Source of the DNA: Candidatus Iainarchaeum sp.
GTDB lineage: Archaea; Micrarchaeota; Micrarchaeia; Burarchaeales; Fermentimicrarchaeaceae
Assembly: GCA_028714235.1 (NCBI GenBank)
Contig: JAQTMQ010000003.1
Coordinates: 1,306-65,305 of the forward strand
Length of the DNA stretch: 64,000 nt
Direction of reading: 5' to 3'
Positions 1,730-24,477 of the stretch are shown here, piece by piece. The first letter of the stretch is position 1, and the number at the start of each line of letters is the position of its first letter. The notes beneath the pieces were generated by a model. The model was given only the letters and a program-made list of their open reading frames with translations. It did no database searches and was not told where the DNA came from. Made by a program: the position numbers and the translations under genes.

Positions 1730-1892
1730 AAACTGCTCAATCGCGGTTTATTAATCATGCGCCAAGCCGGGGGGTTTTGCGGCGCCTAATCCCTGCGACG
1801 GGAATTCGCGGCGCGCGCGAAACCCGCCTGTCGGGTCTCCGCCGGCGCAGGAAAAAAGCGCGGGCCGGCAGGCCGAAACGGGGTTTGCAGCC

Positions 1893-4553
1893 TCATTTCC
1901 GGCTCCCGGCGGTTTTTCCCCGGAGCGCGCCAGCCTGCCAGTCGAGCAAAAGCTTTCCGGCAAGCGCAAGCAGGATGAGGAGCAGCGGAAGGAGTACGGA
2001 AAGCGTGCCGAGGTCGAGGGGGAAGCCGCCGGACTGGTAGGTTTTCGCGTCCTGCGACCGCCCGTACCTCGCCTCAATCGGGTCGCTCATGTTCGGCTTG
2101 AAGGCCGCGACGGCGGTGTGCTTGCCCCACCCGCAGACGGTGTAGCAGAACGTTGCCTCGCCCACGGCGCAGCCGCCCGCCTCGCTGTCCTCCGAGCAGG
2201 TCTTGTTGTCCCCGACCCACCCGAAGTTGTTCAGGCACCTCCCGGAATCCTGGCACACGTTGGACGCGGTGCCGCAAAGCCCGCCAGAGCACTTGCCGCT
2301 TAAGCCGCAGGCCGAATCCGCGGCGCACTTCTTCGCGCACGTGTTCGTCTTCAGGTTGCACGCCTGCGTGCACGAATCGTCGCCCCCGGGCTCGCAGCCG
2401 CAGTCCACGTTTCCGTTGCAGGGCTTCCCGTAAAACTCCACGGCAACCACGCACTGCCCGTCTTCTCCGCAATCCGAATCGTCGAAGCACTTCCGCGTGT
2501 AGGAGCAATGCGGCTGCGCGTTGGTTATCCCGTTGACCGACTGGCGCACGCACTGGGACGAGCTCGTGCACGGAATCTGGCCGTCCGATGTCGAGCAGCC
2601 GGTGTCGGGGTCGCACGAGCAGCCGCCCGCGCCGTCGTTGTTCTCCTGGACGTAGATGGAGTCGTTAGTGTACTCGTTGTAGTCGACGGGATTGATGACC
2701 GCGCCCGCCTCGTAGAAGCGAATCGTCTTGTTCCCGAGCGGGTGCGTGGAGATGGAATCCGGCTCGTCGATGTACTTCGCGAGCAGCTTCGCCGTGAGGC
2801 AGACGAGCGTCTTGTTCCCGTCCGCCGCGTCCCGGACCGTGTCCGGCACCAGGGTCACGGTCGTCGGAAGCCTGAAGTCGAAGGACTGGTTCCAGATGAA
2901 CGTGTTGTTGAAGCGGTCGTAGAACGCGAACGACGCGTTGTGCTGCCCGAGCACCGCCTCGTCCATCACGAGCAGGCTCGCGGTGTCAAGGTTCGAGAAA
3001 AGGTAAATCCCGCTCGCGTTCTGGTACGTGGTCGGGTGGAATTTCAGCGGCTCGACGCGGATGACGCCAAGCTTCCCGCCCCCGCTCCCGCCGGAGGTCG
3101 TGACGCTTATCATCTCGTTGTCCCCGCCCTCGATTTCGACGCGGAAGACCTCCGCGAAGGCGACGCCCGTGGAGCCGCCGTCCGCGGAAACGCCGGACGC
3201 CGTGACTTTCTGCCCGTCCGCGCCAACCCCCATTATCGTGACCCTTGCCGTGCTGCCGCTCTTGTTCGTGTGCACCACGAGCTGGCTGCCCTGCGCGCCT
3301 GAAACCTTCCCGAGGGCGGACGAGGCGGTGTAGGTATTCTCGAGCACGTCCGCGAGCGTGGTCAGGAGCTGCTCGGGGCCGCCTCCGCCGGACCAGAACT
3401 CGATTGAATCGTTCGCAAAGCCGCCCTCGCCCTCGAAGCTGCCGACGCTTTCCAGGCGGATGTAGTAGATGGCGCGCCACTGGATGCCTGACGCGACGAA
3501 CGAGCCCTGGCTTCCGGGCAGGTACAATTCTTCCGAGTCAAGCTGGCCGTCCCCGTTCAGCCCGATAAGCGTCATCGTCCCCGAGCCGCCGTTCTGCGAG
3601 TACCAGCCCTGCGAGTCGCAGGGCGCCGCGGTGTGGCAGTCGAGCGAGGCGGATGGGCTGCCCAGGTCGCACCTCGCGCACTGCGCCATGCCCTCGCGGG
3701 GGTAGCGGTAGCGCGTCTCCTTCCTCGTCGTGTTGTATTCGCACAGGCAGGTTACCATGCCGTTTGTCTCGCATTTCGTCCACGGCGGGTTCAGGTCAAC
3801 CGAGCCCGCCACGCACTTGCCCTGCTTGTCCGGAGTGACGTCGGAAAGCGCCTTGCACGCGGCGTCCAGCGCGTCCCTGTTCTGCTGTTCGCTCCCGCTG
3901 ACTGCGAGGATGCAGAGGTCCTGGGAATGGAACACGTGGGTGCTCGCGTCCTGGCTGACGAACGTGTGGTTGCAGCAGACGTTCTCGTGCGACGAGACCT
4001 TGACGTTGCGCGCGCTGCCGGCCACCATGGGAACGAGTGAGCCCGAATCCGCGGAGAATGTGGACGGGCCCTGGAACCCGGCCCCGGGGATGAAGATTGT
4101 GCCGATGACGACTTTCGCCTGGCCGGGGTCGGTCCACAGCTCGTATTCGTCGCCGAACCCGCCTCCCTCTCCCCCGACCTCGGTTATGTCCTTGAAGCCC
4201 GTGTTCGTGGCGTCCGCGTACCTGAACGGGTACGCTTCCGCGTCCGGAACGAATTTGTGCGTGCCCGGCTCGAAGCTGCCCGTGATTGAGACGCTCGCGC
4301 TGATTGCGTTGTTGGTCGCATTCGCGCCGACAAAGCTCAGGGCGGTCACGTTGCTCACGCGGTTGGGCACCGGCTTCAGCATCAGCGTCGCGTCCGGCGG
4401 AATCGGGGACGTGTTGTACAGCTTGTAGTCTTTAGAGAAAACCCAGTCCAGGCTGGTGCGGTTGTAGCCTGCCCACCACGGGTCCTTGTTGAGGTCGAAA
4501 TACGAGATGGCGTTTACGTCGTAGCGCGGCGCGGCGGGGTCTTTCGGGGACAC
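1893..4553 (-). CDS. C-terminal segment of giant cell-surface protein: Cys-rich module, C-terminal hydrophobic anchor with basic tail (LPLLLILLALAGKLLLDW...GSRK), no signal peptide of its own. In frame with 4620..11189 across a single TAA
   Basis: ORF-track ORF of 886 aa with a GTG start. Same frame as the upstream 2189-aa ORF (coordinate arithmetic: 69 nt apart). The 22 intervening codons read as ordinary protein (TRYRNTLYGYQYLNSSPDAYEN). Many N-x-S/T sequons. Confidence 0.6.
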   Translation of the reverse strand: MSPKDPAAPRYDVNAISYFDLNKDPWWAGYNRTSLDWVFSKDYKLYNTSPIPPDATLMLKPVPNRVSNVTALSFVGANATNNAISASVSITGSFEPGTHKFVPDAEAYPFRYADATNTGFKDITEVGGEGGGFGDEYELWTDPGQAKVVIGTIFIPGAGFQGPSTFSADSGSLVPMVAGSARNVKVSSHENVCCNHTFVSQDASTHVFHSQDLCILAVSGSEQQNRDALDAACKALSDVTPDKQGKCVAGSVDLNPPWTKCETNGMVTCLCEYNTTRKETRYRYPREGMAQCARCDLGSPSASLDCHTAAPCDSQGWYSQNGGSGTMTLIGLNGDGQLDSEELYLPGSQGSFVASGIQWRAIYYIRLESVGSFEGEGGFANDSIEFWSGGGGPEQLLTTLADVLENTYTASSALGKVSGAQGSQLVVHTNKSGSTARVTIMGVGADGQKVTASGVSADGGSTGVAFAEVFRVEIEGGDNEMISVTTSGGSGGGKLGVIRVEPLKFHPTTYQNASGIYLFSNLDTASLLVMDEAVLGQHNASFAFYDRFNNTFIWNQSFDFRLPTTVTLVPDTVRDAADGNKTLVCLTAKLLAKYIDEPDSISTHPLGNKTIRFYEAGAVINPVDYNEYTNDSIYVQENNDGAGGCSCDPDTGCSTSDGQIPCTSSSQCVRQSVNGITNAQPHCSYTRKCFDDSDCGEDGQCVVAVEFYGKPCNGNVDCGCEPGGDDSCTQACNLKTNTCAKKCAADSACGLSGKCSGGLCGTASNVCQDSGRCLNNFGWVGDNKTCSEDSEAGGCAVGEATFCYTVCGWGKHTAVAAFKPNMSDPIEARYGRSQDAKTYQSGGFPLDLGTLSVLLPLLLILLALAGKLLLDWQAGALRGKTAGSRK

Positions 4554-4619
4554 GTTCTCGTAGGCGTCGGGCGAGCTGTTCAGGTATTGGTAGCCGTAAA
4601 GCGTGTTCCTGTAGCGGGT

Positions 4620-7600
4620 TTAGTTGTACCTGAAGCTCGAGTTCACCATCAGGGACTTGGACGAGCCGTTGACGTTGTCGAGCGCCACGAAATGCTTCGT
4701 GAAAAGCCTGGACGAATACGCGGCGTATTCGAGGGACGGGTACACCTCCGGCGCGCACGCGCCCCCTATGCAAACCGCGCCGCTCTGGCACTGGCTGTCC
4801 CGCACGCACGCCTCCTTCTCGCTCCTGTACGGGGTCTGGAACGCAAGCTTGAAAGTGCCTCCCTCGTAAAGGGCGTGCAGGACTGGCGCGACCCCGTGCG
4901 CAATGCCCCAAATCTTGCCTCCGTTGTAGCTGATGTTGACCGCCCCTTCCACGACGGTGTCAACGTAAAACTGGGCGAAATACTTTCGCGTTACGTTCGG
5001 GATGGTCGCGGAAAGGCCGGCTGAAGCCGACCTGCCTGCCGCGATGCTTGAGCCGGCCACCGCCTGCTGCCTCCGGCACACGCTCATCGGGATTCCCGCG
5101 CGGTCCGGGCAGCCCTCGCAGTAAACCCCGTACGGCAGGTTCTTCCTCAGGACGTCCTCGTAAACCAGGACGTCGGTCGGGCCCCTTAGGTCGGGGTCGG
5201 TAATCTTGCCGACGAGCTGCTTCGCGGCCGAAACGCTTCCCTGGACGTCCTTGAAGTCTTCGCTCACCTGCAAGCCCGTGACTTTGACCCTCCAGACCCC
5301 TTCCCAGTCCGGCTTCGTCTTCTCCGAGTCCCTGACGGGCAGGTAGATGTCGTAGTTGCCGCTGCCGCCGTAAACGTCAATGCCGTCAACGCGGGCGTTG
5401 TCGTCGTCCGTTATGTCAAGCTTCTCGACTATCCCGAAAGCGCCGCCGACGCTGAAATCCCAGCCCATGCCGCCTTTCTCCTCAAGGCCGGTTCCGGACG
5501 CGGTCATCCCGCCCCAAAGCGCATCCGTAACCGCGCTGAAGCCCTCGCCCGAGATGGTGGAATAATCGCCTGTGTAAACCGACTTCTTTATGACGAGGTG
5601 CATCGCGGGCTTCACGTTGCCGTACTCGTCCTCGTAATAGACGCGGACCCAGTTTTCGGTGCGCTTGTACTTGGTTTTGTCGTCCCCGCAATAGTTGCAG
5701 GAAGCCGAGCCCTGCGCGTCGCCCTCCCCGAATATCGCCTCGCCGTAGGACAGCTGCCTGAAAGTGAACGCGAAGAGGTCGACCGAGGTGCACCCAAGGC
5801 ACCCCCCTGTCTTGGCCCAGTCGCAGCGCTGCGTCAGCCCCGGCCTCCCGAAGCCCTCCCTGCGCTCGAAAGTGAAGCGGTCCACTACGAAGATGTAGCC
5901 GTCCTTGTACGCGACCGCCACGCCCTGGTGGTAGCGCCTGAACGAAACCAGGCCCGCCGTCTGGCCGATGATGTCGTCCGCGGTGTTCGGGCCGTCGCGC
6001 TCCGGCGTGAACAGGTACTTGTCGTCAACGCAGACCCCCTTCCCTTCGCCGAACGGCTTGACCGCCGGAGAGAAGAACGACACGAACCCTTCGCCTATCT
6101 CGACGTACGGGTTGAGGCAGATGCCCGAGCTGTCGCAGTTGTTGGCGCCGCATTCCAGGTTGCTGTCGAGGAAAAGCGGCTTGAGGCCGCCCACGGACTC
6201 GCTGAACGTGGGCTGGTTCGCGCCTGACATCCATGCGGGCGCGGCCCAGTAGCAGTAGCCTTCGCCGTAATTCAGCGGCGGGCTTCCGGCGATGTTTGAG
6301 TCCCAGCAGCCGGAGCCGAGCTGCCTGCAGGGCATGTACAGCGGGATGTTCTGGAAGCTCGAGATGACCTCGCCGTCAAAGCGCAGCATCATGAGCGAGT
6401 CCGTGCCGTAAACTATGTAAATCTCGCTCCCGTCGCCGGCCACGGCGATGTCCGCCCTGTCCCGGATGTAATGCGAGCCCTGCTCGGGGTTGAAGTTGGA
6501 GTACCCTATGATTGAAGGCGCGTTGCGCGCGTAGGAGGTGTTCACGCTCCAGTCCGGGTTCAGGATTTGGATTACCACTTTTCCGCACGTGAGCCCGAGC
6601 GGGTCGCAGTTCACGTTGTCCGGCTCCGTCAGCCCGACGACGAAAATGCGGTTGTAGGAGTCTATGGCGACCCCGAACGGGTGGTAAGGCCCGGTGTAAT
6701 CAACGGAGAACGGGTCCGCCAACTCCCCTGTCGAGGTTGTCCGCGTGTTCCTCTCCGCGTTGGCGTAAAGCGAGCCCTGCTCCGGGACGCGGCCGATGAG
6801 CTTTATGACGTTCCCGCTGTCCTGCCTCGCAAGCTTGAAATAGTAAAGCGAGCCGCCCTTGCTGTCGGCAACGTAAAAGTTTCCGCGCTTGTCCTCGGCC
6901 ATGCCCTGCGGGTTTTTCCTGAACACGTCGTCAATGCCGGGCTGCGGGTACGTCTCGAACCTCTTGCCCGGATACCCGGAAGCGGAGAAGTCGTACGGGT
7001 AGTCGTAGCGCGAGATGTAGCCTTCCTTGTCGAGGGTGAGCATCGCGCTCGGCCCCTTTATCTCGAACGGGTTCAGCGGCCCCGAGCCCGAGCCGGGCAT
7101 GACCGTGTCGTTCGTCATGTTGAATGACGAAAGCGAGATGTTCGCGTTCAGCTCGACCGAGAGGTTGAAGTAAACCGGCGTTATCGCGTACAGGCTGTCC
7201 AGCTCTGAGCCGAGGGGATTGCCGTTTTTGCCCATCGCGGAAACCCCCCAGCCCCAGACGATGCGGGGATAGCGGAAGGTCGCGCGCATGTAATCGTCCG
7301 AAACGTCCGAGCCGTTGAAGTTCAGGTGGTCGGAAATCTCGCCGTCAATCTGCGGCGTGTAGGTGAAGCCCTTGACGCACAGGATTCCCGCCTCGCCGTC
7401 GAACTGGCCCGTCCCCTGCAGCTCGCCCGCGGCCGGGTCGTCCACGACGCACCATTTCACCGGAATCTCGGAATACCCGACCGCGCAAACGTCGTCGTTG
7501 CCGTACATCCTCTGGCCGTCCCAGCCGATGAGCCTGTCCCCGGCCGCGTTATTCGCGGCGTCCACGGCGTTGACGTCGGGGTAGTACAGCACTTCGCTGC

Positions 7601-10600
7601 CGTCCGGGTTGGCCACCGTCACGTTCTCTTCCGTCTTGTTGGCCGGGGGGTTCACGGTGCCGTCATAGCAGTTCGTGTTCAGGACGAGGGTCGCGTTTTC
7701 GCCGGACGCGAGGTCGCAGCCGTCGCACGTCCCGTTGACGAGGAGTATGCCGTTCTGCGTGGCGTTCACGAGGAACTCGCAGTAGCCGAGCGCCGGGTCG
7801 ACCGGGCAGGAGATTGACGACGACCGCTCGCCCCCGGGAAGCCGCGCGTACGCGTAGCCCACCGTGTTGTGGTTCTCGTCCTCGAAGTGGATGCTGACCG
7901 TGTACGCGTAGCCCTTCAGCGCCTTGCCGGCTGCGTCCGACACGTATGCGCGGGCGGCGAACTCCACGTTCTTCAGCGTCTTGGGGGGCAGCGTCAGCGT
8001 GATGTTTTTCGGCTCGGCGGTGATGGTGATGGCCGCGTAGCCCGTCGCCGGCTGCACGCCCACTTGGCCGAAAGTCTGGTTCGTCGCGGTTACCTCGAAG
8101 TCCCCGGGCCGGCTGATGGACATGTTGAACGCCATCGTCCCGTTCTCGATGTTGCAGCAGTAGGTGTCCGGGAAGCCCGTCTGCTCCTGTATGCTCTTCA
8201 TTGCCTCGGTCTTCTGGTGGTCGCACGTGAAATCTGTCCTGAGCGGGTCAACCAGGTTGAATACCTCGCACCTGCTCTTGTTTTTCGCGTAGGTCACGTT
8301 GAACTGGTAAGGGGCGCCGCCGTCGGCAACCGGGTCGCTTGGCACCGCCCAGATGTACGCGTACTTCGTATAGTTTTCGTCGAGGTCGAAGTACTTGTTG
8401 AGCACGGTGACGTTGCCCGGGAAGTTCGTGGCGGTGGAGGCGACCGCAGCCGGCGGGATTATCACGCGCATTGTCATCTCGGTCGTGTTGTGGCGCACGG
8501 TGACGTTGACGCTGCTGTTGTACTCCTCGCGCCCGCTCACGTAGAAATAGTTGTAAATCTTGTTCACGCGCCGGATGCCCGGGAAAAGGTTTCCGGCCGC
8601 GTTGTCCTGCGCCGCCACCTGGTCCCCCACGTAAATGTCTTCGTACGCGACGAGCCGGAAGGTGTGGTTTCCCCGGTCGCAGTCGTTGAACGTCCAGGTG
8701 CAGAAGCACCGCGCCTCGTCAAGCATCGTTCCGGCCGGGTCCTCCTCGCAGCAGGGCCACGCGGAAAGCCTGTTCGGGGGCGGGCAAAGCCCGGGGGCCG
8801 GGGCCGTGCTGTTGTACCTCAGGCCCTCGACCGTGCACTCCTCCGGGGACAGGTACCGCAACGCCCCGCCCGGGCTGCCGTCCACCGTGATGTTGCGCAG
8901 GTCGCTTTCGTTTTTGCGGTTGTAAAAGTATTCTATGACCTGCTTTACCTTCACCTGCCCCCTGAAAAAGTTGTTGAGGCGCGGGTCGCGGTAATTGTTC
9001 TGCTCGACCGGGTTCGCGCCGCCCGGCGCAATATCGTAGGCCGGGCAGCTCGCGTTGTTGCCCATCTCCGTGCAAATCCTCGCGTCCGCGTAAGGCGGGT
9101 CCGGCACGCCCCCGAAAATCGCCTGGCTCCACGTGGCGAAGCCGGGAAGCAGCTCCAGCGGCACGCGCTCCACGTCGTACGGCCACTGGTGGTATATGTC
9201 CGACACGTTCACGGTGACGTTGTAAAGCTTTTCCGAGTCCACAATCCCGCTGTCGCGGTCGAAATCGTCAAGCGCGCGGTAAACGTAGGGCGTGCGCGCG
9301 TTTTTCGCGTAGCTCACGTAATAGTCGAGGAAAAGCGACGAGTTGGAGCCCTCCCCGAAATCCACGTCCGGGGTGCACACGTAGCCCGGCGCGCACGGCT
9401 CGTGCCCGCGTGGAATGCCGCCGTACGCGCACAGCTCCTGGAATTCCGGGTCGGCCGGAATCACGTTTTTCGGCGAATCCGGGAAGCCGATGGTGTAATG
9501 GCTGTAATACGTGGTCCCGTAGCAGCACGCCGTGTCGTAAGGCCCGGTGTAGTACGAGCAGATGTCGCCTTGCCCGGGGTCGCAGTCCGGGTCGGTCATG
9601 AAGCTGTCTATCTGGCCTTCGCAGTAGTCGCCGCTGCAATCGCAGACCGGGGCCTGGCTCTCCACGGCCCAGTAATCGACGTTGGTCGTGCTCCCGGCCA
9701 CTTTACCGCAAACGTAGGCCTTGGGCACCGGGCACTGGCAGCCCGGGCAGGTTTCCGGGTCGTCGCCGTCAAAGCAGGACGTCCCGCATTGCGCCGGGGT
9801 GACTTCCGGGTTGTTCGTTTCCGAATAGTCTATCGGCTGCGGCTCCCAGCGCGTCACGGTCAGGCGGAACGGCTTAGTAAGCTGGCCGCAGACGGTGACG
9901 TTCGCGCAGTAGGCGTCAGGCAGCCGGATGGGGTTGCCGAGTATGTCCGTATCGTCGCGGTACCGTATGAACGTGGGCCACACGCCCACCTTGCTGATGC
10001 CGCTGTCAACGTAAAAGAAGCTTGCCACGTCCGTGTCGTTTATTTCGGCGTCTATCGGCTTGTTCCAGCAGATGCCTTTGTCCACGTCGCTTCCCGGGTA
10101 GTCCCTGCCCTGGCCCTCGACGATGGGAAGCTCGTTGTTGGCGTAATTGACGGCCGGGGGGACGTAGCCGATGTTGCAGTCGAGGCAGGATTCGCCGCAG
10201 TCGCAGTGGCCGGGGCAGGCGCAGGAGTAATCCGGCGGCTGGCTGTAAGCCGGCGTGCAGTACGGTATTGGGGTGGTGTCGCCCTCAATCTTGTAGTCGC
10301 CGGCATTGTTGCATACCTCGAGCTGCGTGCATTCCTCGGAGGGAAGCTGCGGCACCGGAACAGGCTTTATTTCGTCGCCGCAGGCCGGAATCTCGAGCTC
10401 TCCGAGCGGGGGCGGCGGGGCGCCGGAACCCGTGCCGCCGTTGCACGTGTTCCCGTAATTCGCCATTTCGTCGTAGGAATGGCAGGTTTCGGCGGTTCCC
10501 TGGTACATGCACAGGTACGGGTTGGGCGGGTCGAAGAGCTCGGGCGGGCACCATTTGGGGAACCCGTTCACGTCGCACGGGTCCCGGACGGAGTAGCAGC

Positions 10601-11189
10601 TTGCCGCGGTGATGGTGTTGCCCGTGATTGTGGCCGTGTTCGACCCCGTGAAATCCACGTCGCACGAGTCCACGGGATACATGTTCCCGCACCACAGGGT
10701 GTCCTCGAAAACGTAGCCGTTGGAGCAGGTGCTCGAGCGCTCCACTATGATTCCCGTGTCCGACCCGCTTATCGTGTTGTCCCGGACGGTTATCGCCTGG
10801 CCTGCCACGACGACCGGCCGGCCGCCGTAGCCGTCGCAATAGCTGAAGCGCAGGTAAATTCCCGTGTCGAAGCCCTCGAAGCCGCAGTTCTGGATGGTGG
10901 CGCCGTTTGCCTGCCCCAGGATGACTCCCGTGCCCCCGCGGCTGCTTACGAGCTTGTAGCCGCGGCAGTCAAGCGTCACGCCGTTCAGGACGCCGGGGCT
11001 CCCGGTTATCGTCAGGCACGCGCCGCCGCTTGACGTGATGTCGTGGGTCAGGTAATGCTCCCCGGGCTGCGTTATCACCCCGCAGGATGTTATCTCCATG
11101 GCGGCCGCGGTCTGGGATGCGGCGAGGACGAGGAGGAAAAGCTTCGCGGCTGCGCAAAACCCACGCTGCGAAAACGCGCGACGGTTCAT
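4620..11189 (-). CDS. giant secreted surface protein (2189 aa) with N-terminal Sec signal peptide, right-handed beta-helix-like repeats, NHL/beta-propeller-like repeats, Cys-rich stretches and dense N-glycosylation sequons
   Basis: ORF track. N-terminus MNRRAFSQRGFCAAAKLFLLVLAASQTAAA is a signal peptide. Repeats such as NCGFEGFDTGIYL / VRDNTISGSDTGIIV (pectin-lyase-fold-like) and GNFYVADSKGGSLYYF / YHPFGVAIDSYNRIFVVG (NHL-like). No non-overlapping alternative frame. TATA-like CTTATTAATTT at 11213-11223 upstream. Confidence 0.7.
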   Translation of the reverse strand: MNRRAFSQRGFCAAAKLFLLVLAASQTAAAMEITSCGVITQPGEHYLTHDITSSGGACLTITGSPGVLNGVTLDCRGYKLVSSRGGTGVILGQANGATIQNCGFEGFDTGIYLRFSYCDGYGGRPVVVAGQAITVRDNTISGSDTGIIVERSSTCSNGYVFEDTLWCGNMYPVDSCDVDFTGSNTATITGNTITAASCYSVRDPCDVNGFPKWCPPELFDPPNPYLCMYQGTAETCHSYDEMANYGNTCNGGTGSGAPPPPLGELEIPACGDEIKPVPVPQLPSEECTQLEVCNNAGDYKIEGDTTPIPYCTPAYSQPPDYSCACPGHCDCGESCLDCNIGYVPPAVNYANNELPIVEGQGRDYPGSDVDKGICWNKPIDAEINDTDVASFFYVDSGISKVGVWPTFIRYRDDTDILGNPIRLPDAYCANVTVCGQLTKPFRLTVTRWEPQPIDYSETNNPEVTPAQCGTSCFDGDDPETCPGCQCPVPKAYVCGKVAGSTTNVDYWAVESQAPVCDCSGDYCEGQIDSFMTDPDCDPGQGDICSYYTGPYDTACCYGTTYYSHYTIGFPDSPKNVIPADPEFQELCAYGGIPRGHEPCAPGYVCTPDVDFGEGSNSSLFLDYYVSYAKNARTPYVYRALDDFDRDSGIVDSEKLYNVTVNVSDIYHQWPYDVERVPLELLPGFATWSQAIFGGVPDPPYADARICTEMGNNASCPAYDIAPGGANPVEQNNYRDPRLNNFFRGQVKVKQVIEYFYNRKNESDLRNITVDGSPGGALRYLSPEECTVEGLRYNSTAPAPGLCPPPNRLSAWPCCEEDPAGTMLDEARCFCTWTFNDCDRGNHTFRLVAYEDIYVGDQVAAQDNAAGNLFPGIRRVNKIYNYFYVSGREEYNSSVNVTVRHNTTEMTMRVIIPPAAVASTATNFPGNVTVLNKYFDLDENYTKYAYIWAVPSDPVADGGAPYQFNVTYAKNKSRCEVFNLVDPLRTDFTCDHQKTEAMKSIQEQTGFPDTYCCNIENGTMAFNMSISRPGDFEVTATNQTFGQVGVQPATGYAAITITAEPKNITLTLPPKTLKNVEFAARAYVSDAAGKALKGYAYTVSIHFEDENHNTVGYAYARLPGGERSSSISCPVDPALGYCEFLVNATQNGILLVNGTCDGCDLASGENATLVLNTNCYDGTVNPPANKTEENVTVANPDGSEVLYYPDVNAVDAANNAAGDRLIGWDGQRMYGNDDVCAVGYSEIPVKWCVVDDPAAGELQGTGQFDGEAGILCVKGFTYTPQIDGEISDHLNFNGSDVSDDYMRATFRYPRIVWGWGVSAMGKNGNPLGSELDSLYAITPVYFNLSVELNANISLSSFNMTNDTVMPGSGSGPLNPFEIKGPSAMLTLDKEGYISRYDYPYDFSASGYPGKRFETYPQPGIDDVFRKNPQGMAEDKRGNFYVADSKGGSLYYFKLARQDSGNVIKLIGRVPEQGSLYANAERNTRTTSTGELADPFSVDYTGPYHPFGVAIDSYNRIFVVGLTEPDNVNCDPLGLTCGKVVIQILNPDWSVNTSYARNAPSIIGYSNFNPEQGSHYIRDRADIAVAGDGSEIYIVYGTDSLMMLRFDGEVISSFQNIPLYMPCRQLGSGCWDSNIAGSPPLNYGEGYCYWAAPAWMSGANQPTFSESVGGLKPLFLDSNLECGANNCDSSGICLNPYVEIGEGFVSFFSPAVKPFGEGKGVCVDDKYLFTPERDGPNTADDIIGQTAGLVSFRRYHQGVAVAYKDGYIFVVDRFTFERREGFGRPGLTQRCDWAKTGGCLGCTSVDLFAFTFRQLSYGEAIFGEGDAQGSASCNYCGDDKTKYKRTENWVRVYYEDEYGNVKPAMHLVIKKSVYTGDYSTISGEGFSAVTDALWGGMTASGTGLEEKGGMGWDFSVGGAFGIVEKLDITDDDNARVDGIDVYGGSGNYDIYLPVRDSEKTKPDWEGVWRVKVTGLQVSEDFKDVQGSVSAAKQLVGKITDPDLRGPTDVLVYEDVLRKNLPYGVYCEGCPDRAGIPMSVCRRQQAVAGSSIAAGRSASAGLSATIPNVTRKYFAQFYVDTVVEGAVNISYNGGKIWGIAHGVAPVLHALYEGGTFKLAFQTPYRSEKEACVRDSQCQSGAVCIGGACAPEVYPSLEYAAYSSRLFTKHFVALDNVNGSSKSLMVNSSFRYN

Positions 11190-11329: not shown

Positions 11330-13702
11330 CTAGCTTGCGCGGCCGATTATGGCGTTGAGGGTTCCGAGCGTGATGAACTGGATGCGGCCGATGTCGGACT
11401 CCATCTTTATCGTGACCGCGAGGCTCGTCGCCGATGTGGCGAGCCTGCGCTCGAACTCGTCGAGCTCCTCGCGGCTTGCGAACACGACGTAGGTCATGCC
11501 CTTCGCCGCGGTCCTTGACGCGCGCGCGATTGACTCGTCGCCCTCGTATATGTGGACGAAGATGTTTTCGCCGCGGTAGTTGGCGAGCACGTCGGCGTCC
11601 TGCCTTTGGCCGACTTCGGTGAAGAGGATGGCGTTGTTTATGAAGAAGTTGCGCATTTCGCGGAACATGGCGAGGTAGCGCGGGGTTTTTCCCGACTGCT
11701 TGAGCCATGAGGCGAGCCCGTAGGCGCCGCCTTCCTTGAAGACCTGGCCGGTTTCCGCGAGCTTGGAGAGGAGCTTGTCCAGGTTGTAGTCGCTTATGAG
11801 CACGGGCTTGCCCTGGTACTTTATTTTCCGTTTCACGCCCGTCTTTATCTCGCCGATTGTCAGCGGCATGTACTTCCAGCGGTAGTCCGCGTTCATGGAG
11901 TCGAGGAGGTTGATGAGCGAGTACTTGGATATCATGACGCGCTCCTTTCTCTGCGGCGGAAAGTCGGGGACGTCGATGAAGTACCTTTCGGGCTCGGAGC
12001 GCTGGAGCGCGATGCCCAGGATGAAGATGATTAGCGTGGCGCCGATTATGACCTGGTTTTTCGTGTCGTCGAAGAACGTCGTGGGGCGCGAGCGCGCGTC
12101 GCTGAGCGTGAGCATCCTCCCGGTCGTGTTGAAGGCGAAGGTGTGGTTGCCCACGCCCGGGGACGAGGCGGGCGCGACAGCGAACGCCCCTGAGGCGTCG
12201 GTGGTCGCCGCCATCGGGGGGCCGCCGTCTATCGAGACCATGACCGGCGTGTCCGTGACCGGGACGCCGTCGGTGGCGAGCCTGAACGCGAACCTCGGCG
12301 TGTCGTAGTCCATGCTGATTTTTTCAACCGTGGCCACGGGCACGTGGAGGTATGACTGGGCGTACACCGTTCCCGACGGGTCGGCGAGGCGCAGGATGTA
12401 GTCTCCGTCAGTGAGGTTCACTACGTACTGTTTGGTGGATTCGAAGCCGTCCGAGTATTTCGCGGATATGAACGGCTGCTCCTGCACCTGCCGCCCGTCC
12501 TTGTGCGCCACCAGGTTGAAGTACAGCGTCTGCCCACCGCTGCTCCCGCTGATTTGCAGGGCGACGTTTATGCTCGAGCCGTTGACCCCGCGGAACGGGT
12601 TGAGCATGTGGCCGGACACCGTGCGGCGCACGCCGCTTATTTCCGTGAAGCTGTTCACCGTCCTGTTTTCGCCGGGGCCGCTCCACATGGTCGCCGACTC
12701 GTAAACCCGGATGTAGTTGCCGGCGCTTTGGGCGGGGACGCCGTTGATGAACAGGGAGTCTGTGGCCGAGCCGTCCGGCTGCGCGAGCGAAACCGTCTTG
12801 TTGGCGGTCGCGGTGGGCTGCTCCCATTCCACGCGGTAGAGCAGCTCGGCGACGTCCCCTGCCGCGAGCGCGGGGCCGGTGTGCCAGTCGCCCCAGCCGA
12901 CTTCAAGCGTGTTGGGGAATACGATTAGGTAGCCGCTGCCTATCTTCTGCCACGAAAGCGAGTTGTACTTGAACGAGCTGTTCAAGCCCGCGAGCATGAA
13001 CGTGCTCTGCCTGAGGCGGTACGGGGGAATCGCCGGCTGGCTGCTTCCGACCGGGGCGTAGCTTATGTTGAACTTGGCCGCGAGCGCCGCCGGGTCCTGG
13101 TTCGTTATCGTCTCGTCGCGGCCAATCGTTTGCCCGAAGTCGCTTCCCACGTATACGACTACGCACCCGAGGCCGAGGAGCCTGCCGATGCTCGCCATGC
13201 TGGAATCGTCGAAAAACTCGCTCGGCATCCTTCCGGTCGGCACGATTATTATCGCTTTCTGGGTGGAGTTGGTGAACCTCGCGAGCTGCGGGATTTGGAT
13301 TGTGTTGAGCAGCTGGTCCTCGCGGAGGAGGCCGCGCCCCCTGAGCGCCTGCTCGAGGTCCGCGTAGAAGCCGTCCCGGTCCACGTCGTTCTGGCCGGCC
13401 CACGGGTGCTCGAGCACGTAGATGTCGTTCGGGACCGGCTGGGGGTATTGCTTTGCCTGGAGGGTGATTTCCGAAACGTCGCTTGAATTCACCGCGAAAA
13501 GCAGGTAAACCGAGCTGTAGCCGGGCGTTGAGCCGTAGTCGAGTATCTGGGCGTCGGTGAAGTGCAGGCTGTAGCCGGGGTTGTATTCGTGCGGCGCCTG
13601 GGGCGCGCCCGCCTCCATCATTGACTGCCAGTAGTAGTAGGCGAGCGCGGACGCGAGCACTATCACCATCAGCGACGCGATGAGGATTTTCCGGAGGTTC
13701 AT
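11330..13702 (-). CDS. hypothetical two-domain membrane protein (790 aa): N-terminal signal-anchor, about 500-aa extracytoplasmic region, internal TM helix (VIIGATLIIFILGIAL), about 230-aa C-terminal cytoplasmic domain
   Basis: ORF track. Hydrophobicity pattern read from the sequence. Protein-like composition, in contrast to the Arg-rich overlapping frames. Confidence 0.55.
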   Translation of the reverse strand: MNLRKILIASLMVIVLASALAYYYWQSMMEAGAPQAPHEYNPGYSLHFTDAQILDYGSTPGYSSVYLLFAVNSSDVSEITLQAKQYPQPVPNDIYVLEHPWAGQNDVDRDGFYADLEQALRGRGLLREDQLLNTIQIPQLARFTNSTQKAIIIVPTGRMPSEFFDDSSMASIGRLLGLGCVVVYVGSDFGQTIGRDETITNQDPAALAAKFNISYAPVGSSQPAIPPYRLRQSTFMLAGLNSSFKYNSLSWQKIGSGYLIVFPNTLEVGWGDWHTGPALAAGDVAELLYRVEWEQPTATANKTVSLAQPDGSATDSLFINGVPAQSAGNYIRVYESATMWSGPGENRTVNSFTEISGVRRTVSGHMLNPFRGVNGSSINVALQISGSSGGQTLYFNLVAHKDGRQVQEQPFISAKYSDGFESTKQYVVNLTDGDYILRLADPSGTVYAQSYLHVPVATVEKISMDYDTPRFAFRLATDGVPVTDTPVMVSIDGGPPMAATTDASGAFAVAPASSPGVGNHTFAFNTTGRMLTLSDARSRPTTFFDDTKNQVIIGATLIIFILGIALQRSEPERYFIDVPDFPPQRKERVMISKYSLINLLDSMNADYRWKYMPLTIGEIKTGVKRKIKYQGKPVLISDYNLDKLLSKLAETGQVFKEGGAYGLASWLKQSGKTPRYLAMFREMRNFFINNAILFTEVGQRQDADVLANYRGENIFVHIYEGDESIARASRTAAKGMTYVVFASREELDEFERRLATSATSLAVTIKMESDIGRIQFITLGTLNAIIGRAS

Positions 13703-13707
13703 TCAAA

Positions 13708-13965
13708 TCATTGCCCTCTTTTGCCGGTGAGGCGGGAGATGAGCGGCGAAAGGATTTTGAGGACCGGGTTCGGGACGGGCTCTGCGACGCGCTTTTTTAT
13801 CGCGTACTGCCGCGTGTGCTCGAACCGTTTCTTCACGCGTAGCAGGAGCACGTTTTTCTCGGCCGTGTACTTGAGCGCGGCTGCCCCGATTTTGGCTATT
13901 TCCCGCTGCACGTCGGCCGCGCCGCTTCCCCCCTTCCCGGATTCCGCCCCGCTTTCGCCCATCAT
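13708..13965 (-). CDS. small hypothetical protein (85 aa), Lys-rich
   Basis: ORF track. Overlaps the upstream 260-aa gene by 4 nt (13962-13965), suggesting translational coupling. Confidence 0.3.
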   Translation of the reverse strand: MMGESGAESGKGGSGAADVQREIAKIGAAALKYTAEKNVLLLRVKKRFEHTRQYAIKKRVAEPVPNPVLKILSPLISRLTGKRGQ

Positions 13966-14744
13966 CTCAACTCGAGGTAGCCGCCCAAAACCATTTTGTT
14001 GAGTATGGCTTCCACGCGCGACTCAACCACGTTGTACTGCTTCGAGAACTCGGGGATGCTTATCTCGTTCCTGTGCACGTCAAGCCAGTCCTGCAGCTTC
14101 ACCATCAGGGTTTCGTCGCTGTAGGCCTCGAGCTCCTTCACGCGCAGGGTTAGCTCGTCGTTCTCGGAGCGCGCCTCGATGAGGTCCTTGCTCATCTTCG
14201 AGTGCTGGGCCTCGAGGAGCTCCGTCTTCTTCTTGAGCTCCGAGAACCCGCGGAGCGCTTCGTCGTATTTCGCGAAGATGGTGTTGTAGTCCGAGGAAGC
14301 GAACTCTGCTATGTCCTTGAGCACGGACTGGAGGAGCTGGTACAGCTGCTTCTGGTCGGCCTCGCATGCGCCGTCGAGCTGCGTGAGGAGGTTGAGGAGG
14401 TGGCGGCACACCTCGATTTTCCGCTTCCTCGCGCTCGCGCCCGGGATGACCGAGTAGGCGACCTCAATCGAGGAGGGCCGCAGGTAGGTGATTGAGAAAA
14501 GGTATGGGCTCCGCTTTATGTCCCTGCTTTCGACGTTGAGCACCGCTACGGTGTCGCCGTCGACCGAAACCTTCAGGAACGAGCTTGCCGAAAGGATGCG
14601 CGAGATTTCGGCCGGCTCCTTCGACCGCGTTGCCGAAAGCGCGAAGCCGTCAACTGCCGGCTCCGCTTTCGCTTCCTCCTGCGGCTTCTGCTGCGCGGCC
14701 TCCTGCCCGGAGGGCTGTGCTGGCGTGGCGGGTATCTGCATCAC
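13962..14744 (-). CDS. coiled-coil protein with C-terminal helix-turn-helix-like segment (ISIPEFSKQYNVVESRVEAILNKMVLGGYLE); candidate regulator or accessory protein of the island
   Basis: ORF track. Heptad-like Glu/Lys/Leu-rich central region. C-terminal wHTH-like pattern. TATA-like TATTTAATTT at 14775-14784 upstream. Confidence 0.5.
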   Translation of the reverse strand: MMQIPATPAQPSGQEAAQQKPQEEAKAEPAVDGFALSATRSKEPAEISRILSASSFLKVSVDGDTVAVLNVESRDIKRSPYLFSITYLRPSSIEVAYSVIPGASARKRKIEVCRHLLNLLTQLDGACEADQKQLYQLLQSVLKDIAEFASSDYNTIFAKYDEALRGFSELKKKTELLEAQHSKMSKDLIEARSENDELTLRVKELEAYSDETLMVKLQDWLDVHRNEISIPEFSKQYNVVESRVEAILNKMVLGGYLELR

Positions 14745-14795
14745 CTCAAACGTTTCCGGTCCCTGCTGCGGTAGTATTTAATTTCCCGCCGCTTT

Positions 14796-15179
14796 TTATG
14801 CCTTCGTTCCGGCGGCCTTCCCGCTCTCTTCCCCCCTCTTCTCCGGCAGCTCCGCCTTCGGGTAGTAGTTGACGAGGGACAGCGCGAGGAGGAACGCTGC
14901 CGCGAGCGCCCCCGCGAGGATTGACGCCAGCGAACGCGACGAGTAGAGCACGAGGAAGAACATTGCGGCGGCGAGAAGCCCGTACCACATCAGGTATTTC
15001 TCGAACCGCGCGCGCTTCCCGCGCGCCGCCTCGACGTCGTCCTCGCAGACGACGAGCGAGTTTCCCGTGGCCCTGCCGAGGCGCTCCTTTGCCGCGCGAA
15101 TCGTGGAAAGCACGGGGTCCTCCTGGACTGGGTGGCCCGCCTTTTCCTTCCCGCACACGATGCAAACCGTTTTCGGCAT
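14796..15179 (-). CDS. small membrane protein with N-terminal CxxC zinc-ribbon-like motif (CIVCGK) and two C-terminal TM helices
   Basis: ORF track; hydrophobic segments LLAAAMFFLVLY and ILAGALAAAFLLALSLV. Confidence 0.4.
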   Translation of the reverse strand: MPKTVCIVCGKEKAGHPVQEDPVLSTIRAAKERLGRATGNSLVVCEDDVEAARGKRARFEKYLMWYGLLAAAMFFLVLYSSRSLASILAGALAAAFLLALSLVNYYPKAELPEKRGEESGKAAGTKA

Positions 15180-15188
15180 TGTAACAAC

Positions 15189-15488
15189 TCAATCGTAAAA
15201 CGCTATGTCCTGAACCCTTTCCTCGTCCATGCCCGCCTTCTTGAGGTCGGCGCGCGAGAAGACGGTGATGAGGACGGAGTCGTCGACGCCGCCCTCGCGG
15301 AGCATGGCGTAAACCCTGCCGCGCGGGACTCCGAGCCGCTCGACCGCCGCGACGAAGCTCACGATGTCCATGTGCCTGCTCCGCTTGTCGAACGCCGAGC
15401 AGACCTCCTCCGTCTGGTTGTCGGTGAGGCCGATGTCCCTCAGGCGCGACCGCAGCCCCACCTTCTCCATCGAAATCGCGTAGACCAC
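15189..15488 (-). CDS. hypothetical protein (99 aa)
   Basis: ORF track. Non-Arg-biased composition. Sits between the ATPase and the Zn-ribbon gene in the same orientation. Confidence 0.35.
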   Translation of the reverse strand: MVYAISMEKVGLRSRLRDIGLTDNQTEEVCSAFDKRSRHMDIVSFVAAVERLGVPRGRVYAMLREGGVDDSVLITVFSRADLKKAGMDEERVQDIAFYD

Positions 15489-15501
15489 GGCCGTGCCACC
15501 T

Positions 15502-17046
15502 TTAGGCGGTTCCCCCGCCCCTCATGAAGTCTATGCGCGAGAACAGGTCGATTATTATCGCGTCCTCTATGCCGATGCTCTTCAGGAACGACGTCGTGCT
15601 CGGCCGCGGCACGTTGTTTTCCTCGAGGTGGTTCACGAACGTGATGACGTCCATCGCCTTCTCGCCTTTCTCGAACTCGTTGAGCATCATGGTGACGGAC
15701 GTGTCCTCCACGCCGAATTCCACGAGCCGGTTCCGGAGCTCGCCGCGCTCGAAGGCGTACGACTTCGGGATGTCCGGGTTCTCGCGCGCCTCTGCGGACA
15801 GCACGGACTCTATCGACATGCGGTATTCCTGGAGCGGCTCCTCGCCGTGGACGCGCTCGAGCAGGAACGTTTCCGGGAACTCGGTCGTGGTCTGGAACGC
15901 CATGTTGACCGCGCACTGGCCCACCCCGAACTTGCCTATCTCGCCGCGCATGAACGGGCTGAAGTTGAGCGAGCCCTGGATGTAGTCGAGGAACTTCTCG
16001 AACTTCACGCGCAGGATGAAGGTCGTCCCGACGTTGGAGAAGATGGCCTCGTTTATGTCCGTCGGGTTCTGCGACGCGACGATGAGGCCGAACTGGTACT
16101 TCCTCCCTTCCCGCACAATCATGATTGCGTCCGAGCGGTCGTCCGAGGCGATTTTCCACGCCTCGTCGAGGACGACGAACACCTTCACGCCCTTCTGGGC
16201 CGACCAGCCCACCGCGCGCATGCGCTCCTTCAGGAACTGCAGGAAGAAGAGGCCTGCAAGGCCCCTTAGGACCTCGTCCGGCAGGCCGGAGAGGTCTATG
16301 TCCACGAGGCCCGCGGTCGTGAGCTCCCCGAGCTTCACGGTCGAAGGCTGCGCGAAGAAGTCGTTCCCCTTCCGCGTGAACTGCTTGACCCGGTAGATGG
16401 CGTTTTCGAGCTCGGCCGGGAACTCGTACGTGCCGGCCCGGAGGCGCTCCTCGAGGATGTTCACGACGTCCTTGAGCGTCGGGGGCCGGACCGCGTCCGG
16501 GGAGTTCTCGTCCGCCGGAGGCTCGTCGGGCCTGAAGCCGGCGCGCACGTACGCCTCCTCGATTGACTGCTCGGTGAGGCGCCTCTGCTCCGGGTACGAG
16601 CCGATGTCCGTGAGTATCTCGAGGGCGCGGATGATTTGCTTGACGCGGTCAATCGGCCGCATCCCGCCGAGGTCGAGCAGGTTGACGAAGTCGCCCTTGC
16701 CGAGCGAAATGATTCTTCCGCCGGTCTGCTTCACCCACGCCTTATATTCCCCCGCCCAGTCGATGATGATGGCGTTGCTGCCCCAGACGAAGGCGGCGCG
16801 GGAAAGGAACGTCTTCACGAAATACGATTTTCCCGCGCCCGTGATTCCGACGATGCAGATGTGCGGGTTCGTGAGCTGCATGAAGCTCCAGTTGAACGGA
16901 ATCTGGAACATCTTGGTGCGCCCCACGTAAATGGAGTTCGCGGGGTCGAGCATCAGGAATTCGGGCGGGGGCTCGGGCGGCCTCATGAACAGGGGCCTCC
17001 TCGACAGCTCCTTGCTCGTTATGCTCTGCGCTTTTATTCCCCCCAT
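15502..17046 (-). CDS. FtsK/HerA-superfamily ATPase of the VirB4/TraC/CedB/HerA type (DUF87-like), 514 aa
   Basis: Walker A GITGAGKS, Walker B VFVVLDEAW, followed by the IVASQNPTD (SQ) motif typical of VirB4/HerA-clade ATPases. ORF track. Confidence 0.75.
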   Translation of the reverse strand: MGGIKAQSITSKELSRRPLFMRPPEPPPEFLMLDPANSIYVGRTKMFQIPFNWSFMQLTNPHICIVGITGAGKSYFVKTFLSRAAFVWGSNAIIIDWAGEYKAWVKQTGGRIISLGKGDFVNLLDLGGMRPIDRVKQIIRALEILTDIGSYPEQRRLTEQSIEEAYVRAGFRPDEPPADENSPDAVRPPTLKDVVNILEERLRAGTYEFPAELENAIYRVKQFTRKGNDFFAQPSTVKLGELTTAGLVDIDLSGLPDEVLRGLAGLFFLQFLKERMRAVGWSAQKGVKVFVVLDEAWKIASDDRSDAIMIVREGRKYQFGLIVASQNPTDINEAIFSNVGTTFILRVKFEKFLDYIQGSLNFSPFMRGEIGKFGVGQCAVNMAFQTTTEFPETFLLERVHGEEPLQEYRMSIESVLSAEARENPDIPKSYAFERGELRNRLVEFGVEDTSVTMMLNEFEKGEKAMDVITFVNHLEENNVPRPSTTSFLKSIGIEDAIIIDLFSRIDFMRGGGTA

Positions 17047-17061
17047 CGGCTCACCAAAAAC

Positions 17062-17889
17062 TCAAAGGCTTGAGACGAAATCCGCCCGCTCCGGCGGGAT
17101 GTAGTGCTCCCATGTGAAGCAGCGCTTCATGTCCTCGCCGCGAAGCGGCTTGATTTCCACGTTGAGCGCGTTCGCGGCGGTGGAGCGGATTTCGCCGACC
17201 TGCCTGCGCGCGGCGGCGATTGCCGCTCCCTCGTTCGCGCCGATTCCCGTCGTCACCGCGTACTGCACGACGCCCATAGGCTTCTCGCCCTCGGCGAGGC
17301 GCTCGAGCATCGCGTTCGCGCGCTGGATTTCGCGCTCCCACTTGTCGAGCGTGAGCGCGTCCGGCTTCCCGCTTTCCCTTTCCTTGCCCAGCTTGTACGT
17401 GGCGGAATACCGCTTGTCCTCTATGCGCTCCCTGTACTTCGCGATGTCCTCGAGGTAGGCTATCAGGCAGAACTTGAACGGGAACTTTATCTGCGAAAGC
17501 GAGCGCTCCCAGAGGTCGACGTACGTCGAGGTCAGCGGCGCCTCCGCGTCGGCCGTGCTGGACTCGTAGAATTTCACCGCCATGTACATCGTCGCGTGGC
17601 AGGTCCCGCCGACGTCCTTGACGACCGCGTCCTGCGACGGCGGAATCCGGTAGCCGCCCCCTATTTCCTCGCTCACCTTGAGGAAGCCGGTGACGAGCGG
17701 CATCGCCATGTAGCCCATCATGAACGAGACGTAGACCGCGCCCACCCCGAGCGCGCCGAGCACCGAAAGCGCGATTGCCATCACGCCCCCGAAAAGGCTG
17801 AGGTTCAGGTAGACCACGCCGACCCCGAAGACCGTGCACGCTATCGCTGCGTACGCGGCGTTCTTTTCGTTCATCCTCAGGTCAACCAA
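17062..17889 (-). CDS. bitopic membrane protein P1 (two N-terminal TM helices plus about 190-aa soluble domain); paralogue of 17900..18691
   Basis: ORF track. Shared motifs with the neighbour (DAVVKDVGGTCHATMYMAVKFYESS vs DVVVKRVGDGYYATMFAAVRIFKSA; C-terminal ...LRGEDMKRCFTWEHY vs ...LTGDDLRRCVDWSYC). Confidence 0.5.
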   Translation of the reverse strand: MVDLRMNEKNAAYAAIACTVFGVGVVYLNLSLFGGVMAIALSVLGALGVGAVYVSFMMGYMAMPLVTGFLKVSEEIGGGYRIPPSQDAVVKDVGGTCHATMYMAVKFYESSTADAEAPLTSTYVDLWERSLSQIKFPFKFCLIAYLEDIAKYRERIEDKRYSATYKLGKERESGKPDALTLDKWEREIQRANAMLERLAEGEKPMGVVQYAVTTGIGANEGAAIAAARRQVGEIRSTAANALNVEIKPLRGEDMKRCFTWEHYIPPERADFVSSL

Positions 17890-17899
17890 GCGGAGTCAC

Positions 17900-18691
17900 C
17901 TACAATTCCTTCACCGAGGCCGGCACGCAGTAGGACCAGTCGACGCACCGGCGCAGGTCGTCGCCAGTAAGCGCGGCGACTTCCGCGTTGAGCGTGGTCC
18001 CTACGGTGCCCCTTATCTCGTTGACGGTCTGCCTCACCGCGGCGATTGCCGTGTCCTTGGTGGCGCCTTTCGCGCTCACCTGGACGTAGGTCAGCATGGC
18101 GCGCGGCCTGTCGCCTGAGGACACCTTGGATATGACGTTGTCCCACATGGATATCTCGCGCTCGAGCGTCAGGATTCTTGCCGGGTCCACCTTCTCCTTC
18201 TCGTTTTCCTTCGCGATTTCCATCTGCGTCCTCGCCTTCCTCTCCTCGATGCTGTCCTTGTAGCGCGAGAGGTCCTTGATGTACACGAGCACGCTGTATT
18301 TCGTCACCGTCTTGAGGCTGGAAACCGCGCGCTCCCAGAGCTCCATGAACGAGAACTTCTCCTTCTCGCTCATCGTGGTCGCGGACTTGAAGATGCGCAC
18401 CGCGGCGAACATGGTCGCGTAGTACCCGTCGCCGACGCGCTTCACGACCACGTCGTCTGTGAGCGGTATCTCGTAGTCCGCCTCCTTGCTCTCTATCACG
18501 CGCTTGCGCTGCGTGAAGTAGGGTATCATCCAGTAGCCCCACTTGTAAAGGACGAACGATACGGGCGCCGCGATTATGGAGACCAGCATCAGGAGTATCG
18601 CGAGCGGGCCGAAATAGTAGCCGCCCGCGAAAACGAGCAGCGAGCAGGCTACCGAGATTCCAATAAGCGCGATGGCGAAAGGGTTTTCCAA
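17900..18691 (-). CDS. bitopic membrane protein P2, paralogue of P1. Probable TTG start at 18689-18691; the ORF-track N-terminus out to 18988 overlaps the upstream gene and is Arg-rich, so probably spurious
   Basis: The upstream gene M1 stops at 18718-18720, so translation must start after that. TTG with AGGGA 5 nt upstream gives an N-terminus (ENPFAIALIGISVACSLLVFAGG) matching P1 architecture. An alternative ATG (MLVSII) lies further in. Confidence 0.45.
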   Translation of the reverse strand: MENPFAIALIGISVACSLLVFAGGYYFGPLAILLMLVSIIAAPVSFVLYKWGYWMIPYFTQRKRVIESKEADYEIPLTDDVVVKRVGDGYYATMFAAVRIFKSATTMSEKEKFSFMELWERAVSSLKTVTKYSVLVYIKDLSRYKDSIEERKARTQMEIAKENEKEKVDPARILTLEREISMWDNVISKVSSGDRPRAMLTYVQVSAKGATKDTAIAAVRQTVNEIRGTVGTTLNAEVAALTGDDLRRCVDWSYCVPASVKEL

Positions 18692-18717
18692 TTCAATCCC
18701 TGCAAAAGCCGCTTCGC

Positions 18718-23457: not shown

Positions 23458-23462
23458 CCAAA

Positions 23463-24473: not shown

Positions 24474-24477
24474 CCAA

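Follow-up and report, generated by a model that had tools for sequence, protein, structure and literature searches.

Introduction

A gene split by an ordinary nonsense change, or a young pseudogene, presents as two open reading frames (ORFs) in the same frame separated by one stop codon, with continuous orthologues that carry a sense codon at that position and with a downstream part that lacks expression signals. All of these features are found at a locus of Candidatus Iainarchaeum sp., a tiny, symbiotic-type DPANN archaeon represented by a metagenome-assembled genome (MAG), where the frame for a giant surface protein is interrupted by a single TAA. The locus lies within the 64,000-nucleotide (nt) stretch analysed here (the window, to which all coordinates refer unless another locus is named), which is part of a 68,014-nt contig. 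It differs from the usual case in that the gene is unusually large (~9.3 kb) and is annotated at NCBI as two separate hypothetical proteins, and in that it shows no further decay; the change must therefore be very young or not real. The analysis presented here indicates an ordinary nonsense-interrupted gene, very recently disrupted or mis-called, and neither a case of recoding nor two genuine genes. The two ORFs and the codons between them are likely to have formed one gene originally, interrupted in the assembled sequence by a nonsense substitution of very recent date.

With regard to the protein itself, the closest described system is SPEARE of the Nanohaloarchaeota, in which giant membrane-anchored extracellular proteins are associated with VirB4/TraG-like ATPases (PMC10266531). 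The Iainarchaeum protein resembles SPEARE in its DPANN origin, very large size, extracellular and membrane-anchored character, genomic association with an ATPase of the VirB4/HerA superfamily and plausible involvement in host contact. However, its ATPase is encoded by a separate gene of 514 amino acids (aa), six genes upstream, and is not fused to the giant, and neither an immunoglobulin-like repeat array nor an ATPase domain, the hallmarks of SPEARE, was found in the two ORFs by Pfam search, so that the described features set it apart. The giant gene is a member of a family of DPANN giant surface proteins that has yet to be characterised. A second comparison is with the Ced/Ted DNA-import systems of the conjugation (type IV secretion) type, since the best matches of the ATPase are CedD, CedB and VirB4-like proteins and polytopic and bitopic membrane proteins adjoin it. 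In contrast to Ced/Ted ATPases it scores far below the family cut-offs, and no homology to pilins or to VirB2/VirB6 came to light. We know of no giant surface protein among the described components of Ced systems.

Results and discussion

An interrupted reading frame for a giant surface protein

On the minus strand ORF1, 22 sense codons and ORF2 occupy one frame, with a lone TAA at 4622..4620 between the two ORFs; the 66 nt of the gap (4554..4619, minus strand) read TRYRNTLYGYQYLNSSPDAYEN. When the stop is ignored the frame comprises 3098 residues, and besides the TAA at 4620-4622 no stop is present within 11189-1896. Coordinates and translation confirm the layout proposed in the original prediction, an initial reading of these letters, namely two ORFs in the same frame separated by a single TAA and 22 sense codons. 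The elements of the interrupted gene are listed below; residues of the joined product are numbered as fused aa, and P0003, P0005, P0015 and L001 denote homologous proteins and a homologous locus described in the following section.

4620..11189, minus strand: ORF1, ATG start, 2189 aa, TAA stop; NCBI PHF51_01000, 'hypothetical protein'; N-terminal 71% of the giant protein
4620..4622, minus strand: in-frame TAA, facing TAT (Tyr) in L001 and Phe in P0005 and P0015; middle residue of an N-x-T sequon
4554..4619, minus strand: 22 linker codons (TRYRNTLYGYQYLNSSPDAYEN), a coding part of the ancestral gene by GC content at third codon positions (GC3) and orthologue identity
1893..4553, minus strand: ORF2, GTG start, 886 aa, TGA stop; NCBI PHF51_00995; C-terminal part of the same ancestral protein
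4404..4772, minus strand: conserved block, fused aa ~2140-2262, SRLFTKHFVxLDNV...NSSxxxN[Y/F]TRxxNSxYGY...YENVSPKDP...WAGYxNTSLxW
11100..11189, minus strand: signal-peptide-like N-terminus MNRRAFSQRGFCAAAKLFLLVLAASQTAAA, with equivalent hydrophobic N-termini in the orthologues P0003 and P0005
1938..2027, minus strand: C-terminal membrane anchor GFPLDLGTLSVLLPLLLILLALAGKLLLDW with a basic tail behind it; P0003 and P0005 keep both the motif and the transmembrane segment
11214..11221, minus strand: TATA-like box ATTAATAA, centred ~30 nt upstream of the ORF1 ATG
1852..1857, minus strand: run of six T, ~35 nt past the ORF2 stop, a plausible archaeal terminator

The combined frame holds just two hydrophobic segments, the signal-like N-terminus of ORF1 and fused aa 3055-3084. 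Both ends expected of a surface protein with an N-terminal signal peptide and a C-terminal anchor, as had been predicted, were found, and homologues are continuous between them. ORF1 contains 36 N-x-S/T sequons and 3.9% Cys. Searches of Pfam and NCBIfam with the giant protein returned almost nothing beyond a weak, sub-threshold NosD-like beta-helix match (ORF1 aa 82-195, Pfam) and a faint NHL match, and no paralogy was found among the large ORFs of the window.

Homologues without a break at the TAA

An exhaustive phmmer (HMMER) search of 1.84 billion representatives was carried out with a 1161-aa query centred on the stop, which was represented by X at position 571. Proteins P0003 (2631 aa, aligned to query 176-652), P0005 (2662 aa, query 135-638) and P0015 (a fragment of at least 1486 aa, query 317-598) all run unbroken through position 571. 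By BLASTP a single high-scoring segment pair places fused aa 731-2320 on P0003 155-1697, and fused aa 2265-3085 is collinear with P0003 1850-2623. The stretch flanking the stop is among the best conserved in these alignments, reading NSSFRYN*TRYRNTLYGYQYLNSSPDAYENVSPKDP in the window, NSSYHFNYTRWNNSYYGYEFITTNVDIYENVSPKDP in P0003, NSTYRFNFTRWSNSFYGYEYATTNINMFENIS in P0005 and NSTYRLNFTILNNSFFGYQF in P0015. In the four-way alignment the site corresponds to N-X-T, N-Y-T, N-F-T and N-F-T, the stop occupying the middle of a conserved N-x-T glycosylation sequon. The TAA falls inside the conserved block at 4404..4772 and, judged by sequence conservation, not at a domain boundary; AlphaFold2 modelling of the junction region from the four-sequence alignment gave a mean predicted local distance difference test (pLDDT) score of 34, too low to be of use.

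Gene order identifies P0003 and P0005 as orthologues. P0003 is carried by seven contigs, of which four places (ENA, two JGI samples and Logan) were covered. These loci and that of P0005 share the order 265, 273, 514 (a DUF87/HerA ATPase), 99, 136-142, 260-265, 67-77 and 779-782 aa, one giant and a further gene, the shorter P0005 contig holding only the last 226 aa of the first (265-aa) protein. In the P0003 loci the gene after the giant encodes a second giant of 3819 aa, with a Metallophos match in L001. The minus strand of the window repeats this order gene by gene, with two ORFs standing where the orthologues have one giant gene. Identities between window and orthologue proteins are 81% for the ATPase, 62% for the 275-aa, 61% for the 260-aa, 64% for the 130-aa, 52% for the 110-aa and 45% for the 790-aa protein, and 40% over 50 residues for a small protein of 85 aa. 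The original prediction had pointed to orthologues sharing the split as support for two genuine genes; the opposite was found, both syntenic loci having single genes (2631 and 2662 aa) with Tyr or Phe at the position of the stop. ORF1 and ORF2 derive from a single ancestral gene.

Word-indexed protein searches with the fused protein and ORF2 yielded at most the two NCBI entries for these ORFs, and the same kind of search with a 411-aa junction query missed even identical proteins, making its blank result uninformative. Scanning of genome contigs revealed no relatives, and scanning of metagenome contigs revealed only locus L005, where the translation of the junction region is identical to P0003. 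Across protein, genome and metagenome searches no relative closer than 42-49% identity was found.

Two further observations concern parts of the giant protein. Fused aa 1-730 (window 9000-11189) have no counterpart in P0003 or P0005, whose alignments begin at fused aa 731 and 813, respectively; this region holds the weak NosD-like match and Cys-rich stretches and is a putative lineage-specific distal 'tip', as might be expected of a host-specific binding part. Within ORF2, a module at fused aa ~2611-2780 (window ~2850-3360; IRVEPLKFHPTTYQNASGIYLF…FYDRFNNTFIWNQ) shows 30-39% identity with at least 11 other proteins, seven of them giants of 2081-3022 aa (P0006, P0008-P0012) and four shorter (228-1044 aa), and may be a common C-terminal stalk or anchor of a wider family of giant proteins.

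Identity of the affected codon

When the window sequences were aligned to L001 by tblastn, the ORF1 match stopped at nt 14695 of that locus and the match of the 22 codons opened at nt 14699. The codon between them (14696-14698), which belongs to the closest orthologue, is TAT, in the context TTC AAT TAT ACG (F N Y T). The L001 organism has 46% GC. In the giant gene of the window TAC and TAT are used in a ratio of 146:18, and TAC makes up 59% of the sense codons that lie one step from TAA. Because TAC predominates both over TAT and among all such codons, the ancestral codon was most probably TAC (Tyr) and TAC to TAA the most probable change. A single third-position substitution, G to T on the plus strand at 4620, would suffice to convert this conserved aromatic codon to TAA.

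Comparison with chance arrangements

The layout by itself is statistically unremarkable, since adjacent genes share a frame one third of the time and the way in which the ORF list was made leaves no room for a stop among the 22 codons; the decisive evidence comes from homology. A second same-frame pair in the window (42462-45020 and 45045-46868, plus strand), separated by TAG and 8 codons, was rejected as a coincidence of unrelated genes, for a P-type ATPase and ABCE1/RLI; a TATA-like box (TTTTTATAT) lies in the gap between them, and this pair serves as a negative control. What takes the arrangement of ORF1 and ORF2 beyond chance is the GC3 of the 22 codons, their conservation at the protein level and the continuity of homologues across the site. 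GC3 is 0.87 in ORF1, 0.89 in ORF2 and 0.86 (19/22) in the 22 codons, and the probability of at least 19/22 is 0.017 at an intergenic GC of 0.63 (sampled intergenic DNA, 63% GC). Residues encoded by this stretch are identical to those of the two orthologues at 10/22 and 9/22 positions. These values agree with the earlier description of the 22 codons as reading like normal protein.

ORF2 and the two-gene alternative

Most gene starts in the window are preceded by a TATA-like box at ~-30 to -40 or by a GGTG Shine-Dalgarno (SD) motif ~6-10 nt upstream, while a few, such as those of the radical-SAM and replication factor C (RFC) genes, have no clear example of either. As to the TATA-like class, ATTAATAA precedes both ORF1 and the next gene downstream (1748-1755), and 5 matches to WTTAATAA were counted against 0.4 expected. 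Neither a GGTG SD motif nor a TATA-like box is present upstream of the ORF2 GTG. Of the candidate starts examined over the first 290 codons, one alone, an internal GTG at codon 2278, lies near a GGTG, and a hydrophobic segment that could act as a signal peptide is missing after all of them. ORF2 nevertheless has the make-up of an extracellular protein: it contains 20.9 sequons per 1000 aa and its Cys content is 4.2%, compared with 0-6 sequons per 1000 aa and 0.4-2.5% Cys in cytoplasmic proteins of the window, and its C-terminus is the anchor conserved in the family. Since this composition and conserved anchor are combined with the lack of an export signal, ORF2 is predicted to depend on the signal peptide of ORF1. 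An oligo-T run follows the ORF2 stop, and no comparable run follows the internal TAA.

It is very unlikely that ORF1 and ORF2 are two genuine genes, for a secreted 2189-aa protein and a separately translated 886-aa anchored protein. Such an arrangement would agree with the NCBI annotation, in which neither PHF51_01000 nor PHF51_00995 is flagged as a pseudogene, and has a natural precedent in a distant locus, L007, where the giant family is encoded by two genes (L007 58-8317). There, P0015 holds the junction block intact and ends ~80 residues after it, and the second gene (1266 aa from an ATG at nt 4520) encodes a signal peptide of its own (MRNKKNKLKIELCSFRILPAFILLFLLLVGTVTASC) as well as the conserved C-terminal module and its anchor; the product ends in a hydrophobic segment preceded by YGGG..., a diverged version of the anchor motif. 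The split at L007 is thus placed between modules and supplied with an export signal, whereas the TAA of the window lies inside the conserved block, at a conserved Tyr/Phe, and is followed by a part with no SD motif, TATA box or signal peptide. In addition, both syntenic orthologues are single genes and the 22 'intergenic' codons are conserved protein sequence. An A-rich tract (AAAAAAAA) was also observed at the start of the second L007 gene.

Recoding and phase variation

Programmed readthrough, suppression or local recoding of the TAA, for instance as Tyr, would yield the full-length anchored protein, possibly together with a truncated secreted form. Preservation and conservation of the whole downstream frame and the position of the stop at a Tyr site are compatible with this, yet the stop is not conserved, relatives having ordinary Tyr or Phe codons, and TAA is the true terminator of the cluster ATPase and of other genes in the window. 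Folding of 141 nt around the stop gave a minimum free energy of -33.5 kcal/mol, in the range of shuffled sequences (mean -30.2; z = -1.0), and neither Rfam families nor tRNA genes were found within the window. With A at +4, the stop stands in a context that terminates efficiently in release systems of the eukaryotic type; we know of no evidence that TAA-A is a leaky context, and UAA readthrough is to our knowledge not an established mechanism in archaea. We regard recoding of this kind as highly improbable.

Genome-wide reassignment of TAA was rejected, given that the ATPase ends in TAA at 514 aa, like both of its orthologues, and that TctA (51220-52416) also ends in TAA; TAA functions as a normal stop codon elsewhere in the window. 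The original prediction had excluded global reassignment, which holds in view of the orthologous length of the HerA/VirB4-like gene, and had placed a nonsense mutation or error first and readthrough last, a ranking that is borne out. Its further suggestion of phase variation finds no support, the site being free of repeat tracts. Reversible switching of this kind, here of an anchor-bearing form, typically affects large surface proteins, and the L007 family member is likewise in two pieces. However, no homopolymer or short tandem repeat is present at or near the TAA (4600-4640; local sequence AGGTACAACTAAACCCGCTACAGG), a point nonsense change is not the kind of switch that slippage could reverse, and L007 has a clean two-gene layout with its own signal peptide. 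Phase variation therefore seems extremely improbable.

Age of the change and quality of the consensus

ORF2 is free of further stops and frameshifts, and its codon bias is intact. Against P0003, identity amounts to 40.8% before the stop and 38.1% after it, and the corresponding values for P0003 against P0005 over the same parts are 33.9% and 31.8%; there is no relaxed evolution downstream of the TAA. Because the frame remains fully open over the 2.7 kb beyond the stop, with codon bias unaltered and conservation at its normal level, the event must be very recent.

Every one of these signs of recency fits equally well with a sequencing, assembly or polishing artefact, in which an intact gene of ~3,098 aa would carry TAC and the TAA would be a consensus error or a minority strain variant. 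The difference amounts to one base, and the sequence derives from a MAG, on one contig, with one member sequence in the protein collection. Against this, the rest of the window shows no sign of poor consensus. The other eight cluster genes have no in-frame stop or frameshift relative to their orthologues, six of them aligning essentially end to end; the genes for isoleucyl-tRNA synthetase (IleRS), RFC, ABCE1 and the P-type ATPase are intact; and for most conserved genes that were checked the alignment to an orthologue or Pfam profile is complete. The absence of in-frame stops and frameshifts from the conserved genes checked indicates a generally good consensus. Substitution errors are rare in short-read consensus sequences, although short reads may not be the platform used for this MAG. 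An artefact is thus considered unlikely. From general knowledge of the accuracy of short-read MAG consensus, we infer that the allele exists in cells and not only in the consensus, which we hold to be clearly the more probable case; the change is either a real allele or, less likely, an assembly error.

Several points weigh against a very recent nonsense substitution that inactivates the downstream part of a single gene. Four window proteins, looked up by exact sequence, turned up in no other assembly, and since no independent assembly matched and no relative exceeded 42-49% identity, the TAA may be present solely in the consensus. Translation of ORF2 by reinitiation may occur, being compatible with the sequence. 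Finally, L007 indicates that a two-chain version of the family can work, and because such a two-polypeptide arrangement exists the anchor-less N-terminal part is not necessarily non-functional.

Consequences of the interruption

The ancestral product would have been a giant (~3,098-aa), N-glycosylated, Cys-rich surface protein anchored at its C-terminus. If the TAA is real, we infer that translation would end there and that the cell would export a 2189-aa fragment without a membrane anchor, while the last 908 codons would not be produced in a useful form because no promoter, SD motif or signal peptide is available to them. Under these circumstances this strain or a sub-population of it would have lost membrane anchoring of the giant component, which bears on the dispensability or variability of such host-interaction proteins. 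That a real TAA is tolerated or exploited appears quite improbable, whether through low-level UAA readthrough or suppression (e.g. by a near-cognate Tyr-tRNA) or through a giant adhesin turning into an anchor-less secreted form like that of L007; were it true, the locus would offer a snapshot of remodelling of giant surface proteins in DPANN archaea. An interruption of this kind is an ordinary event, a 9.3-kb gene being a large mutational target. With respect to annotation, PHF51_01000 and PHF51_00995 together represent one gene, disrupted or mis-called, and neither should be counted as an independent family member.

The conserved gene cluster

The giant gene is a distal, fast-evolving component of a conserved Iainarchaeota cluster, the upstream part of which is as follows.

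11330..25566, minus strand: genes for the 790-aa protein, small proteins of 85, 260, 130 and 110 aa, the 514-aa ATPase (15502-17046), two bitopic paralogues of ~270 aa and several polytopic paralogues of 338-389 aa

The cluster also takes in 2-1747 and is common to at least two other organisms (loci L001-L004). In order of transcription it consists of the polytopic proteins, the bitopic pair, the 514-aa ATPase, proteins of 110, 130, 260, 85 and 790 aa, the giant and a second giant. The polytopic paralogues have 5-8 hydrophobic segments and a highly conserved C-terminus of ~33 aa. The best NCBIfam matches of the ATPase, to CedD, CedB and VirB4-like conjugation ATPases, are all sub-threshold (e.g. 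67 bits against 600), and its match in the PDB is the VirB4-like protein 4ag5. Judged by gene content, the cluster resembles machinery that spans the cell envelope, in the manner of type IV secretion or Ced systems, and would be an uncharacterised example in Iainarchaeota; its HerA/VirB4-like ATPase, membrane proteins and two giants probably mediate host-cell contact or exchange. A literature search found nothing specific on this cluster in Iainarchaeota, only the nanohaloarchaeal analogy coming to light.

The window as a whole is chromosomal, carrying IleRS, an RFC small subunit, ABCE1, a Pelota/eRF1-fold protein and other housekeeping genes, all intact. The Pelota/eRF1-fold protein (39398-40444, minus strand; 348 aa) contains eRF1 domains 1-3 with nothing unusual seen, and from its size is more likely Pelota than aRF1. 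Within the cluster, a listed ORF of 362 aa (17900-18988, minus strand) matches its 265-aa orthologue over aa 102-362 only; its first ~100 codons are rich in Arg and His and run in another frame across the 3' end of the upstream gene, and the ORF is probably over-extended at its 5' end.

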